Positions 53,567 through 61,265 of a stretch of DNA of 64,000 bases are shown here, piece by piece. Below the pieces are notes generated by a model. The model was given only the letters and a program-made list of their open reading frames with translations. It was not told the DNA's origin and did no database searches. The stretch's first letter is position 1. The number at the start of each line of letters is the position of its first letter. The translations under genes and the position numbers were made by a program. This DNA is from Microcoleus sp. (GTDB taxonomy: Bacteria; Cyanobacteriota; Cyanobacteriia; Cyanobacteriales; Microcoleaceae): contig JAYFMW010000006.1 of assembly GCA_042408215.1 (NCBI GenBank), positions 864,001 to 928,000 on the forward strand. Reading direction: 5' to 3'.

Positions 53567-53974
53567 ATGTTTTTTGTACCACATCCCCTTGTAGCACCAA
53601 CAGTTATAGCTCAAATTAGACCGACTGTCGAAAGTTTACCCGATGGAGACTACCGGTACCGAGACTCCTTTGCGATCGATCGACCTTTTAGAGAAATCCA
53701 ATTTCGCAAACAAGACAGATACATCACCGGCAGCGATTCCGACAAAGCCACGGGTAAAAGCTACTGTTTTCGGGGAATTGCCCTACACAATAACATTATT
53801 AACATCACTGTAGCCACTGAAATTTATCTCAAAACCTCGCCCACACAGCAAACCGAGTGGAAATTGGAGCCGGGAAGCCCAATTAATTTCGACAAACTTT
53901 ATCCGCTGCAAGCTGGGCCCGGATTACAATTGTACAAATGTTTGACAGCATTTTTGCCAAAATTGAAAGATTAG
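53567..53974 (+). CDS. Hypothetical protein
   Basis: Start reassigned to ATG 53567 because the upstream part is a palindromic repeat; SLPDGDYRY...SYCFRG. Confidence 0.6.
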   Translation: MFFVPHPLVAPTVIAQIRPTVESLPDGDYRYRDSFAIDRPFREIQFRKQDRYITGSDSDKATGKSYCFRGIALHNNIINITVATEIYLKTSPTQQTEWKLEPGSPINFDKLYPLQAGPGLQLYKCLTAFLPKLKD

Positions 53975-54340
53975 TCATTAGTTATTAGTCATTAGTCATT
54001 AGTCATTAGTCATTAGTCATTAGTCATTGGTCATTGGTCATTGGTCATTAGTCATTAGTCATTGGTCATTAGTCATTAGTCATTGGTCATTAGTCATTAG
54101 TCATTAGTCATTAGTCATTGGTCATTAGTCATTAGTCATTAGTCATTGGTCATTGGTCATTAGTCATGCGTAATTCGTCATTAGTCATTGGTCATTAGTC
54201 ATTGGTCATTAGTCATTAGTCATTGGTCATTAGTCATTAGTCATTGGTCATTGGTCATTAGTCATTGGTCATTAGTCATTAGTCATTGGTCATTGGTCAT
54301 TAGTCATTGGTCATTGGTCATTAGTCATTAGTCATTGGTG
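53972..54340. repeat. Long STRR heptamer array (TAGTCAT/TGGTCAT)n
   Basis: Direct reading. Confidence 0.95.
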
Positions 54341-56279
54341 ATTGGTGAGAGATTATTAGTTATTGGTAGCAGCTAACCAATAACTAATAACCAATAACAA
54401 ATAACCAATAACAACATCCTAATAACCAGCATTTTTCAACTCTTCTTTGAGCATTTGTCGGTAGACTTTCGGCAAACTAGAACTCATAGAATTGTTCTCA
54501 ATGCCATAGCCCAAACTCGTCCAGGTTCCCGACAGCATCCGCAATACCTGACTTAATTTTTCCGATCGCAGCATCTCAGAAATATCAGCTTTCCAAAACT
54601 TGCGATCGCTCAACCAAGCATAAACCACAGCATCCTGATATTCTGGCTCAAAACTGTAATCTTGCCACATCATAAAATTAGCAGGTTTCGGGTGATAGCG
54701 CTTAGCCTTATCCTTCCAAGTCGAACTCAAAAATTGATACCTACCCGCCGCCGTAGTACAGTTACCCCGATTCGGGCCATTCACAATCGTCACGCACCAG
54801 TCAGGATGGTGACTCAAATCTAATATGTATTTGCCACCATAAACAACATGATAAGGTCGAGAAACATTCGACTCGCTAGCAGAAATAGTTCGCATCAGCG
54901 CCCGAATGTAAGGATCGCCCGCTTTCATAGCTAGTGGCGGCAATTTGCGAACCTCACTTGCTTGGGGAGATAACGGCGGCAAACCCCGCCAACTGACAGC
55001 CAAAAAAACAGCGCCGCCAATCACAGCGCCGATTAATATTAGAAATCCCAGGATTTGAATTTCCGATCGCCTCAGCAAACCCCCCGGTTGACGGCGGAAT
55101 TGTTGAGCTTGCAGCCAACTCATTTCCATTTCAGCAATTTCGGCCAATTTTGTAGCAGCCCGCATCCGGCGCACCCGGAAATCGTGTTGATATAGTGGCG
55201 CAGCCAACAGCGTCAAACTCGACAAAGCCCCAGCCAATCTAAGCAGCCAGAAATCGAATTCACCAGCTAATGCAACTTTTGCATTGGTCATTGGTCATTA
55301 GTCATTGGTCATTGGTCATTAGTCATTAGTCATTGGTGATTGGTGAGAGATTATTAGTTATTGGTAGCAGCTAACCAATAACTAATAACCAATAACAAAT
55401 AACCAATAACAACATCCTAATAACCAGCATTTTTCAACTCTTCTTTGAGCATTTGTCGGTAGACTTTCGGCAAACTAGAACTCATAGAATTGTTCTCAAT
55501 GCCATAGCCCAAACTCGTCCAGGTTCCCGACAGCATCCGCAATACCTGACTTAATTTTTCCGATCGCAGCATCTCAGAAATATCAGCTTTCCAAAACTTG
55601 CGATCGCTCAACCAAGCATAAACCACAGCATCCTGATATTCTGGCTCAAAACTGTAATCTTGCCACATCATAAAATTAGCAGGTTTCGGGTGATAGCGCT
55701 TAGCCTTATCCTTCCAAGTCGAACTCAAAAATTGATACCTACCCGCCGCCGTAGTACAGTTACCCCGATTCGGGCCATTCACAATCGTCACGCACCAGTC
55801 AGGATGGTGACTCAAATCTAATATGTATTTGCCACCATAAACAACATGATAAGGTCGAGAAACATTCGACTCGCTAGCAGAAATAGTTCGCATCAGCGCC
55901 CGAATGTAAGGATCGCCCGCTTTCATAGCTAGTGGCGGCAATTTGCGAACCTCACTTGCTTGGGGAGATAACGGCGGCAAACCCCGCCAACTGACAGCCA
56001 AAAAAACAGCGCCGCCAATCACAGCGCCGATTAATATTAGAAATCCCAGGATTTGAATTTCCGATCGCCTCAGCAAACCCCCCGGTTGACGGCGGAATTG
56101 TTGAGCTTGCAGCCAACTCATTTCCATTTCAGCAATTTCGGCCAATTTTGTAGCAGCCCGCATCCGGCGCACCCGGAAATCGTGTTGATATAGTGGCGCA
56201 GCCAACAGCGTCAAACTCGACAAAGCCCCAGCCAATCTAAGCAGCCAGAAATCGAATTCACCAGCTAATGCAACTTTTG
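54284..56279. repeat. 998-bp tandem duplication
   Basis: 54284-55281 matches 55282-56279; no differences noticed by eye. Confidence 0.9.
54419..55291 (-). CDS. 5'-truncated duplicate of the lambda-R-like muramidase gene
   Basis: Same translation as the C-terminal part of 55417-56703; the ATG is supplied by STRR sequence. Confidence 0.55.
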   Translation of the reverse strand: MTNAKVALAGEFDFWLLRLAGALSSLTLLAAPLYQHDFRVRRMRAATKLAEIAEMEMSWLQAQQFRRQPGGLLRRSEIQILGFLILIGAVIGGAVFLAVSWRGLPPLSPQASEVRKLPPLAMKAGDPYIRALMRTISASESNVSRPYHVVYGGKYILDLSHHPDWCVTIVNGPNRGNCTTAAGRYQFLSSTWKDKAKRYHPKPANFMMWQDYSFEPEYQDAVVYAWLSDRKFWKADISEMLRSEKLSQVLRMLSGTWTSLGYGIENNSMSSSLPKVYRQMLKEELKNAGY

Positions 56280-56703
56280 TCAGAGTAGATATTCCTGCTA
56301 GCAATTCCCCCGGATTAAGCGATCGCGCCTGCCAATAAAAAATCGCAACTTGCACCAGCAGCGACAGATTAAATGCCAGAAAGATTACTACTAGAGCATT
56401 CAAACCTTCCCGGAAGTGCGATCGAATACCAGTATGTCGGCGCTGGAACTTACCTGCTATGTGAAAGCGGCCAGGTAGCAGAGTTAGTATGGGATTTAAG
56501 ATGGTGACGGCTAAAAAGTGAACAACAAAGAACAAAGGTAACTGAATTAGCCAAGCAGTTAGCAATAGAGTCAAAAAGCTCAGATCGTCATTGACTAAAG
56601 GAATGCCCCTGTTCACTACAAAACTAAAACTCTGAGCGAGGACAAATGCCCTTAACCAGGAAATCGGATAGGGGAACCAAGCTGGCCACTTGAGAGTTTT
56701 CAT
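55417..56703 (-). CDS. Membrane-anchored lambda-R-type lytic transglycosylase/muramidase (GH24/GH104-like)
   Basis: N-terminal TM segments; RALMRTISASES, YGG...HP, TAAGRYQFL..TW, FEPEYQD, LSGTWTSL. Confidence 0.85.
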   Translation of the reverse strand: MKTLKWPAWFPYPISWLRAFVLAQSFSFVVNRGIPLVNDDLSFLTLLLTAWLIQLPLFFVVHFLAVTILNPILTLLPGRFHIAGKFQRRHTGIRSHFREGLNALVVIFLAFNLSLLVQVAIFYWQARSLNPGELLAGISTLTKVALAGEFDFWLLRLAGALSSLTLLAAPLYQHDFRVRRMRAATKLAEIAEMEMSWLQAQQFRRQPGGLLRRSEIQILGFLILIGAVIGGAVFLAVSWRGLPPLSPQASEVRKLPPLAMKAGDPYIRALMRTISASESNVSRPYHVVYGGKYILDLSHHPDWCVTIVNGPNRGNCTTAAGRYQFLSSTWKDKAKRYHPKPANFMMWQDYSFEPEYQDAVVYAWLSDRKFWKADISEMLRSEKLSQVLRMLSGTWTSLGYGIENNSMSSSLPKVYRQMLKEELKNAGY

Positions 56704-56904: not shown

Positions 56905-57564
56905 TCAAACCACACCCGCAAACAATTCCAGAAAACTCTTTTCCGTCGCCTCCGACTTCGCCACAATCTCCACAAGCTTATTGCGAGAAGCCGGCTCAAA
57001 TAGAGCCTCCACACACACTTGAGCTACCTTAGTGCGGGGAATACTACCATCTGATAGTTTGTCCGCTGACTCCATGACGATCGCATTAGAATTATCTTCA
57101 TTTTTGAGACCGCCTGGACGGACAATAGTGTAAGTTAGCCCACTTTTTTGCAAATATTCCTCAGCTTGCTTCTTCCAAACCAAAATCAACCAGAACAAAT
57201 TCAGCGGGTGGAAAAAGTTAGACACGCACAGAGAAGTCACCAGCACAAAATGCTCAATTCCCTTAGCCTTAGCTGCATCCACCAAATTTTTAGTTCCCTC
57301 AAAATCCACCCGATAAGGCGCTGTCGGGTCAAAACCAGGGGCTGCACCCGTCGCGCAGAGCAATACCGTACTATCACCGATGGCATCACTGAGAGATGTA
57401 GCATTTAATACATCTCCCGTGACTAACTCAGCTTCCGGGGGTAAAATTTGCCTAGCTGTCTCTAAATTACGGACTAGAGCACGTACGGGAATCCCGCGCT
57501 TTACCAATTCAGTGACAATTCGGCGTCCAGTCTGGCCTGTGGCTCCTGCTACAAATGCTTTCAT
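56905..57564 (-). CDS. NAD(P)H-binding atypical SDR (Tic62-like)
   Basis: MKAFVAGATGQTG, VRALVR, VDFEGTKNL, YTIVRPGGL. Confidence 0.9.
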   Translation of the reverse strand: MKAFVAGATGQTGRRIVTELVKRGIPVRALVRNLETARQILPPEAELVTGDVLNATSLSDAIGDSTVLLCATGAAPGFDPTAPYRVDFEGTKNLVDAAKAKGIEHFVLVTSLCVSNFFHPLNLFWLILVWKKQAEEYLQKSGLTYTIVRPGGLKNEDNSNAIVMESADKLSDGSIPRTKVAQVCVEALFEPASRNKLVEIVAKSEATEKSFLELFAGVV

Positions 57565-57919
57565 CAGAAAATTGGGTTTGAAACCCCGTCCTTTTAGGAC
57601 GGCTTTGCTTGATTTGATAAATTAGTTGCCTACCTCTTTCGAGGCGGAGGGGTATGGTTGCCCCTCCTTTGGAGATATGGTTGTCTCCAGTCCCTTTCGG
57701 GTAAAGTTCGCTTCGCCAATGTTATAAGAGCTTGTTAGGCTGAAAGCACTGTTCCAGTGACCTTAGAACTGTTTAACTAGCAGCGACAGAGCAAGGGACT
57801 AGCGTCGCATCCCAGGGTGTCGTGACTCAAATAACGTAGTCAGCTAAGACTTAGGCTGGTCAGAATGGCTTGTTCGATTACTCTTGCAAGCCCCGTCCCT
57901 TAAGGGCGGGGTTCCTGAC
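57565..57919. mobile_element. Non-autonomous IS200/IS605-family (IscB/HEARO-type) element, 355 bp, no ORF
   Basis: TCAT|cagaaaattgggttt-GAAA-ccccgtccttttaggacgg at one end; CAAG-ccccgtcccttaagggcgggg-ttcc-TGAC at the other; abuts the ATGA start of the SDR gene. Confidence 0.9.
57692..57919 (-). ncRNA. HEARO / IscB-type omegaRNA scaffold
   Basis: Minus strand: GTCAGGAACCCCG..GGGGCTTG..CAAGCC..CTGACCAGCCTAAG..CTACGTTAT..ACACCCTGGGATG..CTAGTCCC..GCTCTGT..GTTAAACAG..CAGTGC..ATAACATTGGCGAAGC..TTACCCGAAAGGG, in HEARO motif order. Confidence 0.85.
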
Positions 57920-58049
57920 AAATCGAGTTATCCTGAACTAGGGTATGTTTTGTTGCTACCAGCAAGTTTCCATTCTCAATTGTAGGGAGTTTCCTCCCTT
58001 GCCACATCCCCAACCCGAGTAATAGGCGTGTATTAAAGGAGAGCGAACC

Positions 58050-58763
58050 ATGAAGCAGGATTCCGCCGAATATCCAACCGTTGAGGCTTCCGATCAACTT
58101 TGGTATCCAGATTCGAGTTTCCAGCCAACGGAAAGTGAAGGTGCAGATGTAGCCGAGTCAGTTGAGCAGACTTGGTTTCGCACCCATTTTGAAGACAGCA
58201 TGGAGATGTATGCGGATGCTGAGACGGTGGCCAAGCATTTTAACAATCACAAGAGTTGGTTTAGTAAGTGCGCTTTGCCGATGAAGGCAGAATCGATCGG
58301 AGAAAATGGCTACGATTTATTAATCGGCCGTTTTGGTGCTTTCGGCTACCGCGTTGAAGTCAGAATTGGTTTAGAACTACTACCTCCTGATGCCGAAGGG
58401 TGCTATTTGATTAGAACAATTCCGGTTCCGAATTATACGCCACCCGGATATGAAGTTAATTTTTGCTCCGCGATGAATTTGGTGGAAATACCTGCTGACG
58501 AGTTTGCCACAAATTGGCCGACTTCCGAGCGTTCTAAGTTGCCACCTGTGATTACCAGTGCTGCGTGGAAGCTGGATTTAGCAGTAGGAGTTCACTTTCC
58601 GAAGTTTATTCTATCCATGTCTGAATCTTTAATTCAAAAAACCGGCGAGGGAGTTTTGGAAAAAATTATCAAACAAGTTAACCGCCGCTTGACTTATAAA
58701 ACTCAGCTGGTTTTTCACGAAAGTTTGGGAATTCCTTTTCCTCAAAAACCCAAAAAACATTAA
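58050..58763 (+). CDS. DUF1997-family protein
   Basis: MEMYADAETVA..F..H..WF..CALPMK, IGRFGAFGY.VE..IGLELLP; AAGGAG ribosome-binding site. Confidence 0.8.
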   Translation: MKQDSAEYPTVEASDQLWYPDSSFQPTESEGADVAESVEQTWFRTHFEDSMEMYADAETVAKHFNNHKSWFSKCALPMKAESIGENGYDLLIGRFGAFGYRVEVRIGLELLPPDAEGCYLIRTIPVPNYTPPGYEVNFCSAMNLVEIPADEFATNWPTSERSKLPPVITSAAWKLDLAVGVHFPKFILSMSESLIQKTGEGVLEKIIKQVNRRLTYKTQLVFHESLGIPFPQKPKKH

Positions 58764-58904: not shown

Positions 58905-59549
58905 TTAAGCTGCTGTCAAAATTTGCTCTCTCAACTTCCCAATCAACTCATTCACCCCCCCCGTATTCAAACGGTAACTCAAAGGATGGCCAATCAAATA
59001 AGCCGAACTTTCAAACAAAACGTCAATCTCCACCAAACCATTTTCCTGCAAAGTTTTGCCCGTCGCCACCAAATCCACGATCGCCTCCGACATTCCCGTG
59101 ATCGGCCCCAATTCCACAGAACCGTAAAGCGGCACAATTTCCACCGGCAAATTCAAATTGTGAAAATATTCCCTTGCACAGTGGACGAATTTAGAAGCAA
59201 CTCTACCATGAGGCGGCAAGTCCACAGTTCTGCGGTAAGAACTAGATTCTTTCACCGCCACCGACAGCCGACATTCACCAAATTTTAAATCTATTAAATT
59301 TGCAACCTTCGGCTGTTTTTCCCGCAAAACATCATAACCAGCAATCCCCAAATCCGCTTGACCGTATTCCACATAAACCGGCACATCATGGGTTCTGACT
59401 AGCAAAGCTTTTGCAGTTCCGGTAGGGTCGTAAATTTGAAGTTGGCGGTTAGATGAATCTAGAAAAGCACTGAAGTCTAATCCAACAGATTTGAACAGTC
59501 TAATGCTATCTGCTAACAGTCCACCTTTGGGAAGTGCTACGGTAATCAT
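58905..59549 (-). CDS. hisG: ATP phosphoribosyltransferase, short form
   Basis: [54 protein letters not shown]. Confidence 0.97.
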
Positions 59550-59604
59550 AAAAATACTCGGTAAGTGGGAAACTCTGAGTCTTCAGACTTGAGAGGGAAA
59601 CGAC
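59550..59604 (+). mobile_element. Solo IS200/IS605-type left-end remnant abutting the hisG start codon
   Basis: TCAT|aaaaatactcggtaagtgg-GAAA-ctctgagtcttcagacttgagag hairpin; same gtcttcagac apex as the 42271 element; no right end found. Confidence 0.5.
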
Positions 59605-60364: not shown

Positions 60365-61265
60365 AATGGGTCGTTGCACATATTCCGATCCCCCTAAATC
60401 CCCCTTCTTAAGGGGAGTAGGGGTTGACTTTGATTGGACTCTTGTCCCCCCCTTAAGAAGGGGGGTTAGGGGGGATCGAATTCTATGCAGCTTCATAAAA
60501 AATTGGTATTACATAAAAAACCCGGTTTCTAGGAAAACTTGTGCAATGGGTCGTTGCACATATTCCGATCCCCCTAAATCCCCCTTCTTAAGGGGAGTAG
60601 GGGTTGACTTTGATTGGACTCTTGTCCCCCCCTTAAGAAGGGGGGTTAGGGGGGATCGAATTCTATGCAGCTTCATAAAAAATTGGTATTACATAAAAAA
60701 CCCGGTTTCTAGGAAAACTTGTGCAATGGGTCGTTGCACATATTCCGATCCCCCTAAATCCCCCTTCTTAAGGGGAGTAGGGGTTGACTTTGATTGGACT
60801 CTTGTCCCCCCCTTAAGAAGGGGGGTTAGGGGGGATCGAATTCTATGCAGCTTCATAAAAAATTGGTATTACATAAAAAACCCGGTTTCTAGGAAAACTT
60901 GTGCAATGGGTCGTTGCACATATTCCGATCCCCCTAAATCCCCCTTCTTAAGGGGAGTAGGGGTTGACTTTGATTGGACTCTTGTCCCCCCCTTAAGAAG
61001 GGGGGTTAGGGGGGATCGAATTCTATGCAGCTTCATAAAAAATTGGTATTACATAAAAAACCCGGTTTCTAGGAAAACTTGTGCAATGGGTCGTTGCACA
61101 TATTCCGATCCCCCTAAATCCCCCTTAAGATGGGGAGTAGGGGTTGACTTTGATTGGACTCTTGTCCCCCCCTTAAGAAGGGGGGTTAGGGGGGATCGAA
61201 TTCTATGCAGCTTCATAAAAAATTGGTATTACATAAAAAACCCGGTTTCTAGGAAAACTTGTGCA
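60365..61265. repeat. 180-bp tandem array, 5 copies, derived from a MITE plus flanking repeat
   Basis: atgggtcgttgcac at 60366, 60546, 60726, 60906, 61086; copies 1-4 identical, copy 5 differs at ccccttaagatgggg. Confidence 0.95.

Follow-up and report, generated by a model that had tools for sequence, protein, structure and literature searches.

The HEARO RNA was reportedly described by Weinberg and colleagues in 2009, its elements are said to insert before RTGA, and a characterised IscB reportedly has an ATGA TAM. IscB is a nuclease ancestral to Cas9. The primary source on standalone omegaRNAs working with IscB is said to be Altae-Tran and colleagues (2021). HEARO is equated with omegaRNA in passages of PMC13565253 and PMC9755519, and a section of PMC9581776 states that standalone omegaRNAs function with IscB and gives NTGA and NTG as IsrB TAMs. 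The effect of HEARO on neighbouring genes is raised as a question in a passage of PMC8400943.

ISC1-1_MA and IS605B-1_MA of Microcystis have N|ATGA as their target (Kapitonov et al. 2016, PMC4810608), and the term 'start codon' has no occurrence in that paper. PATE-like elements without an ORF, whose omegaRNAs are acted on in trans, are treated in a part of Meers et al. (PMC10055086) together with peel-paste/cut-copy retention at donor joints and the DNA-guide rule of IS200/605 ends. IStrons combine a group I intron with IS605 or IS607, as a passage of PMC4227781 puts it.

The element before the SDR gene and its empty alleles

The window analysed here is a 64,000-nucleotide stretch of a Microcoleus sp. 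genome. At the gathering score, its sole Rfam match is a HEARO RNA (RF02033) at 57919-57701 on the minus strand, which covers the complete model (1-211/211) with a score of 164.6 bits (E 4.5e-35; gathering cut-off 83) and ranks second by score among the 70 HEARO matches of the genome. This full-model match upholds the initial annotation, in which a stand-alone HEARO/omegaRNA element had been proposed from the sequence; the GTCAG/CTGAC, GGCTTG/CAAGCC and GTTAT/ATAAC pairings listed there are all present in the covariance-model alignment. It was also correct that no iscB follows the scaffold (57701..57919, minus strand). The next ORF is a PF13460 gene at 57564-56905, 136 nt separate the end of the HEARO model from its ATG, and no iscB or isrB ORF lies between the element ends. 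This host gene (56905..57564, minus strand) is intact and encodes an NAD(P)H-binding atypical SDR of 219 aa. Its orthologues are 88-99% identical and share its start in all 29 congeneric loci.

The 29 loci, besides the locus itself, were obtained by searching 60 relatives with the region 57100-58300. In the two closest congeneric genomes (98-99% identical flanks), the flanks directly abut (query 1-381 and 737-1201) with no gap or duplication, so the element spans the 355 bp at 57565-57919 on the minus strand, exactly the coordinates first proposed. The empty junctions and the covariance-model match define it as a whole ORF-less IS200/IS605 element, PATE-like and omegaRNA-carrying, inserted without target duplication. 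The empty junction reads ...TT|ATGAAAGCA, or ...AT|ATG in two cases, and occurs in 25 of the 29 congeneric loci, with another element at the identical junction in the other four. Among the four runs compared, contigs of X2 (DNA) and X14 (an RNA library) skip exactly 57565-57919, X1 contigs carry both filled junctions and X16 shows no joint; no skip joint occurs among the contigs of X1, the filled allele, although contigs drop rare forms. The exact empty junctions in relatives and the skips in X2 and X14 show that the insertion is real, precise and recent, and it is polymorphic, being missing from near-identical strains.

These data bear out two further proposals of the initial annotation, namely an empty site N|ATGA, seen as the junction in the 25 loci and in run X2, and a guide in the 5' flank, since this flank followed by ATGA is that same junction. 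The predicted guide is the host leader adjoining the element (57920..57935, minus strand), its length of 16 being an assumption taken from known IscB. This leader is conserved, the X2 empty allele retains it unchanged, and the filled genome nowhere contains the guide followed by ATGA, a result that holds when just 10 guide bases are required. From the empty alleles, the code of the ends and the N|ATGA target given in PMC4810608, the ATGA at 57561..57564 (minus strand) is the TnpA target tetranucleotide (TCAT on the top strand), the predicted IscB TAM and the start of the SDR gene.

The plus strand is the transposon top strand, which reads TCAT | left end ... right end TGAC with like hairpins at both ends. 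The left end, of family A and recognised by its guide/target code (57565..57606, plus strand), has the DNA guide GAAA at 57580-57583 and a hairpin at 57586-57602. The right end (57887..57919, plus strand) overlaps the 5' stem of the omegaRNA and comprises the DNA guide CAAG (57887-57890), a hairpin (57891-57911) and the terminal TGAC (57916-57919). Genome-wide, 111 of the 118 ends caught by a search pattern that admitted eight tetramers only fall into five guide-target pairs at the foot of the left-end hairpin (AAAG-TTAC 47, AAAA-TTAT 25, CAAG-TGAC 20, GAAA-TCAT 16, GAAG-TCAC 3; other 7). CAAG goes with TGAC in all 20 left ends that bear it and GAAA with TCAT in all 16; the ends of the element therefore fit the IS200/605 DNA-guide rule, with GAAA/TCAT on the left and CAAG/TGAC on the right. 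Twenty matches to PF01797 (Y1 TnpA) were found in the genome. Two tnpA genes end in a family-A hairpin and have HUH, a full-length PF01797 match and no stops; judged by sequence, a Y1 TnpA with matching ends exists in trans.

In the place of the iscB ORF, and outside the Rfam model, the element carries a 3' module (57633..57701, minus strand) made up of a GNRA hairpin, two tandem hairpins with CAACCAUA loops and another GNRA hairpin. This module is present in 22 ORF-less copies, and all 21 genome matches of its HMM lie behind an ORF-less HEARO. Over 15 sequences, 94% of cells are paired and two-sided change is seen in 5 of 19 pairs, a level reached by 2 of 500 shuffles (slid controls 0-4). Because related sequences inflate such scores, this covariation is suggestive of an RNA structure. 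In 19 other ORF-less copies this slot is filled by a different 3' module, a three-way junction of about 100 nt in which 14 of 33 pairs covary. It was observed behind HEARO and divergent omegaRNA scaffolds alike (L013:1716-1856 and 18 other ORF-less copies; L038, L120, L151). Judged by eye, it is not a hammerhead, as the core CUGANGA is absent. No Rfam match was found for either module, nor for a further ORF-less family of 405 bp described below.

The element at 57565-57919 is thus of the ORF-less, omegaRNA-bearing IS200/605 kind and is neither an ISC transposon nor an IStron. Taken singly, the 355-bp element is of a known kind and ordinary for its family; what is out of the ordinary is the concentration of such elements on start codons, together with their dedicated 3' modules.

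Three other features of the window were noted. On the minus strand, 54419-55291 and 55417-56703 form a tandem duplication in which the C-terminal ~285 residues of the second ORF repeat the first ORF exactly; no Pfam match was found for the longer ORF (55417-56703), and the duplication (54419-56703) may be recent or an assembly artefact. At 60365-61265, a 180-bp unit occurs five times with 99% identity and yields a spurious repetitive ORF of 319 aa, and a heptamer array of 52 copies occupies 53970-54336.

Start-codon docking across the family

Our hexamer gene model, with 5735 genes, calls a start at 13.3% of the non-disruptive ATGA sites (2100 of 15808). A strict count applied this model to element-free alleles: of the 39 ORF-less copies that end at ATGA, 24 sit on starts (p 3e-12 against this background), as do 7 of the 15 iscB copies ending at ATGA. 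A curated count places 32 of 42 ORF-less copies on starts; it adds three composite ends and five model-missed starts to the strict count, excludes three copies without a recognisable end, and is more generous than its 13.3% background. Pfam families were found in 26 of 28 scanned ORFs behind start-docked copies. The genes concerned include rpsP (ribosomal S16), rplS (L19), petL, petM, Psb27 and the FTR variable chain, as well as signal peptidase, DAHP synthase and a GTP_EFTU protein with an EF-G-like start.

The same pattern was observed beyond this genome, where starts were scored with the gene model of the present genome and without an empty-allele check. Among the 21 ORF-less HEARO copies of congeners, 17 open a coding ORF, and outside loci with a family-A left end do so in 41 of 59 cases (34 of 50 distinct sites) against a background of 15.6%. 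By cargo, the outside loci at starts amount to 9/11 for HEARO, 6/9 for tnpB and 9/13 for iscB/isrB-like elements, and 5 of 6 tnpB elements of this genome are at starts. The bias is therefore not specific to RNAs with a 5' guide. Start-codon docking is the rule for the ATGA-targeting IS200/605 elements here, tnpB cargo included, and far exceeds what a four-base target accounts for. A statement of such docking was not found in the literature consulted, and the papers of Weinberg (2009) and Altae-Tran (2021) may already note it.

Several related arrangements were observed. The divergent neighbour of the SDR gene, a DUF1997 gene (window 58050), has its ATGA start occupied in three outside loci (L119, L140, L159) by truncated elements that combine a family-A left end with a non-HEARO (IsrB-like) RNA 5' end. 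Four ORF-less HEAROs have two left ends in series (L001, L005, G000:C30:230698, C4:3521), and for three of the four the end coincides with the start codon of a gene of 355-750 aa. In one locus (L212, genome G005), an omegaRNA element lies before an ATG whose site is empty in this genome; the N-terminus behind it presumably belongs to a PsbD-like protein, which it resembles. Two kb from the SDR locus, a family-B left end without an element body constitutes the entire leader of hisG (59550-59600, minus strand; hisG at 58905-59549). Of the 18 loci in which the hisG start was found, four have this end in place of the native leader, apparently through deletion at a short microhomology. Since the leader was outright replaced by a left end, such ends can serve as leaders.

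The bias towards starts may arise at insertion or afterwards. The former is a possible account to which we give real but lesser credence: TnpA would prefer ATGA in a translation-start context, either through an extended sequence preference or because single-stranded DNA is exposed where transcription pauses near start codons, and guide expression and homing would be incidental. The cargo-independence of docking speaks for it, as does the repeated use of single sites. The SDR start bears four different elements across five genomes, three of them in four relatives (two relatives have one tnpB type there, a third has a different tnpB type, and the fourth has a divergent ORF-less omegaRNA), and the DUF1997 start was struck in three outside loci. 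Invaded non-start sites also score as start-like (LLR 0.82 versus -1.45 for intergenic sites, p 0.01). Moreover, polymorphic insertions are already enriched at starts. For the two closest genomes, 44 HEARO loci (48 minus four weak or cut ones) divide into 14 shared, 21 unresolved and nine that are empty here; these nine young omegaRNA insertions include five at called starts and six that open a coding ORF. The RNA of tnpB elements runs the opposite way and needs no host promoter, yet these elements are at starts, which counts against retention and, along with the enrichment of young insertions, points to targeting.

Against a bias at insertion stands an ORF-less, antisense-type family of 405 bp with a tnpB-type right end and the identical ATGA target, none of whose seven members is at a start (p 2e-4 versus 32/42). 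This family (L171, at G000:C17:90302-90706, and six further copies) is young, five members being 98-100% identical. Accessibility of single-stranded TCAT fails as a cause, with 0.58 at starts and 0.59 in intergenic sites, and TnpA would need the template strand rather than the strand displaced in R-loops. Age was also considered as a cause and set aside. The fraction at starts was 3/12 for young and 37/51 for old insertions (p 0.005) in a test that left out element #1 and included one element ending in GTGA; it fell to 3/7 for the young ones (p 0.19) without the 405-bp family, so that the trend is significant only with this family, in which age is confounded with cargo. On balance, we put retention somewhat ahead of targeting as the cause of the start bias.

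The host leader, the guide RNA and its candidate partners

The SDR promoter presumably lies in the native intergenic stretch that separates this gene from the divergent DUF1997 gene (57920..58049). No sigma-70 consensus was found there; the search for internal or upstream sigma-70 promoters at the locus gave none against 0.7 expected, a count that is uninformative. The initial annotation had also placed a ribosome-binding site upstream of the junction, and this part of it does not hold. The putative site AGGA is present in just 3 of 25 empty alleles (AGCA in 22 of 25) and pairs weakly, at -4.1 kcal/mol, with the anti-SD core. Nor is a conserved site supported more widely, as SD-like pairing of -4.4 kcal/mol or lower occurs in 7 of 32 empty leaders versus 60 of 250 background starts. 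The element parts the SDR gene from its native leader, and this native leader has no demonstrable SD. What now directly precedes the ATG is the family-A left end, which on the minus strand is a U-rich stretch without an SD. Averaged over 32 sites, predicted AUG accessibility is 0.50 in filled and 0.51 in empty alleles; at the SDR locus it falls from 0.61 (empty) to 0.44 (filled), and a weak terminator-like stem (57586-57574, minus strand) lies 10 nt ahead of the ATG. Six RNA runs contain part of the stretch, with the read depth over the element coming from its multi-copy relatives.

One way for the starts of essential genes to tolerate such an element would be its removal from the mRNA, by IStron-like splicing or precise processing, with restoration of the native leader. 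Copies at rpsP, rplS, petL and petM are indeed tolerated, and the X14 RNA-library contig skips exactly 355 nt. However, this contig has the variants at 56930 and 56931 of the X2 empty DNA allele and not those of the filled X1, so X14 represents an empty-allele strain and its skipped form is a haplotype, not a spliced product. No group I or II intron or ribozyme model matched at the gathering score (introns also at E<=1), and HEARO is an established guide scaffold according to a passage of PMC13565253. We regard self-removal as very improbable.

The guide RNA would need an IscB supplied in trans, as the initial annotation had supposed, and candidate partners exist. Of the 70 HEARO matches (64 above the cut-off), 25 precede an iscB sequence and 45 are ORF-less. 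ORFs longer than 380 aa, taken as full-length iscB, accompany 16 of the 25, and 15 of these 16 have the RuvC-I DPG motif; 15 iscB elements end at ATGA. The closest iscB-linked scaffold is 85% identical to that of the element and belongs to an element encoding a guided_IscB of 423 aa (NCBIfam, 468 bits) with RuvC and HNH motifs and with solved IscB structures among its relatives. This element ends at ATGA, but its left-end family differs from family A, and the genome yielded no intact iscB element that has a left end of family A. On the scaffold tree, iscB-linked and ORF-less copies are mixed, and a single origin of the ORF-less copies is not supported, as the labels need 6-9 changes. The types of scaffold, of 3' module and of left end occur in shuffled combinations along this tree, and an ORF-less copy (L015) and one with a broken iscB (L016) have an identical scaffold, which suggests that copies of these elements may recombine with one another.

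The lack of an intact family-A iscB and the distance of the closest scaffold are what would be seen if the element were an inert passenger, transcribed if at all as a junk leader, not loaded by an IscB since its cognate is lost, and lowering or silencing a dispensable SDR gene until excision or decay. The lower predicted AUG accessibility and the terminator-like stem at this locus agree with such a state, as does a recent insertion missing from near-identical strains. On the other hand, the scaffold has the second best score of the genome, the ends and the 3' module are intact and covarying, scaffolds mix between iscB-linked and ORF-less copies, and essential genes tolerate sister copies. We therefore hold an inert passenger to be improbable.

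The best explanation, on which we would lay even weight for and against, is a non-autonomous element whose guide RNA is made from a host promoter, which homes through a trans IscB and whose copies at starts are mainly retained. Loss of iscB would have left the element with the omegaRNA and the two TnpA ends, and a Y1 TnpA encoded elsewhere would then have inserted it as single-stranded DNA 3' of the antisense-strand TCAT, exactly before the SDR ATG. The ends, the DNA guides and the empty allele support this insertion step; which TnpA acted we infer. The guide of an IscB omegaRNA is supplied by the 5' flank; the RNA must therefore begin within the host leader, and the SDR promoter most likely makes a single joint transcript, predicted to comprise guide, scaffold, 3' module, U-rich left end and SDR mRNA. 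The ribosome would initiate from the left-end sequence without an SD. Cyanobacteria are polyploid, and a trans IscB with an ATGA TAM would load the RNA and cut chromosome copies left empty by TnpA excision, with recombination restoring the element. This cutting and recombination step would follow the analogy of Meers et al.

Copies at starts would accumulate chiefly by retention, because the gene stays whole and the guide-bearing transcript comes free, helped somewhat by a start-like sequence preference of the transposase. Retention is also favoured by the non-start omegaRNA insertions, of which 7 of 15 lie no more than 150 nt ahead of a same-strand gene against 18% expected, and by the absence of the 405-bp family from starts. 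Sister copies at rpsP, rplS, EF-G, petL and petM imply that, in some places at least, transcription reads through the element and the gene is translated; the known essentiality of ribosomal-protein and b6f genes argues that this is so there. The divergence from the closest iscB scaffold, the missing family-A iscB, the lower AUG accessibility at the locus and the weak terminator-like stem weigh against this best explanation too.

More tentatively, and with some doubt, the ATGA-targeting cyanobacterial IS200/605 elements may be start-codon specialists whose ORF-less omegaRNA cassettes form the leaders of dozens of host mRNAs, including those of ribosomal-protein and cytochrome b6f genes. These cassettes would borrow host promoters for their guides and keep the gene translated through their 3' modules (the twin CAACCAUA hairpins or the three-way-junction module) and the U-rich left end. 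Host leaders would thereby be rewritten, as with the left-end remnant at hisG, and genes could fall under the control of IscB binding or omegaRNA processing. If true, parking at a start codon would spare the ORF and provide the element with an upstream promoter, which a 5'-guide omegaRNA is unable to bring along, and such promoter borrowing would explain how transcripts of IscB guides arise in the first place. Mobile elements would also gain a route to replace bacterial 5' leaders. Natural pairs of filled and empty alleles occur in near-identical strains, and standalone omegaRNAs have 3' RNA modules that are as yet unmodelled.

Comparison with described elements

With the HEARO/IscB omegaRNA, the element has in common a full-length match to the covariance model, the 5' GTCA end, the position of the guide and an end before ATGA. 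It differs from HEARO, as represented by the 211-position RF02033 model, in having no ORF and in its 3' module of 70 nt, which has four hairpins and twin CAACCAUA loops. The ISC transposons of Kapitonov et al. are alike in the 5'-GTCA end, duplication-free insertion 5' of ATGA, the cyanobacterial host and a left end common to antisense tnpB elements; those elements encode IscB/IsrB or TnpB, whereas no ORF lies between the ends here.

Like IStrons (in the passage of PMC4227781), the element joins IS200/605 ends to a structured RNA and is placed where host genes could suffer. Unlike them, it matches no intron model and is inserted before an ORF and not inside one, and no spliced form of it was seen. 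The likeness to PATEs extends to the absence of proteins, both TnpA ends, an omegaRNA in need of trans proteins and the donor-joint target. The PATEs in the relevant part of PMC10055086 differ from the elements of this genome, where about 45 copies occur with three quarters on host starts, so that their RNA would be an mRNA leader.
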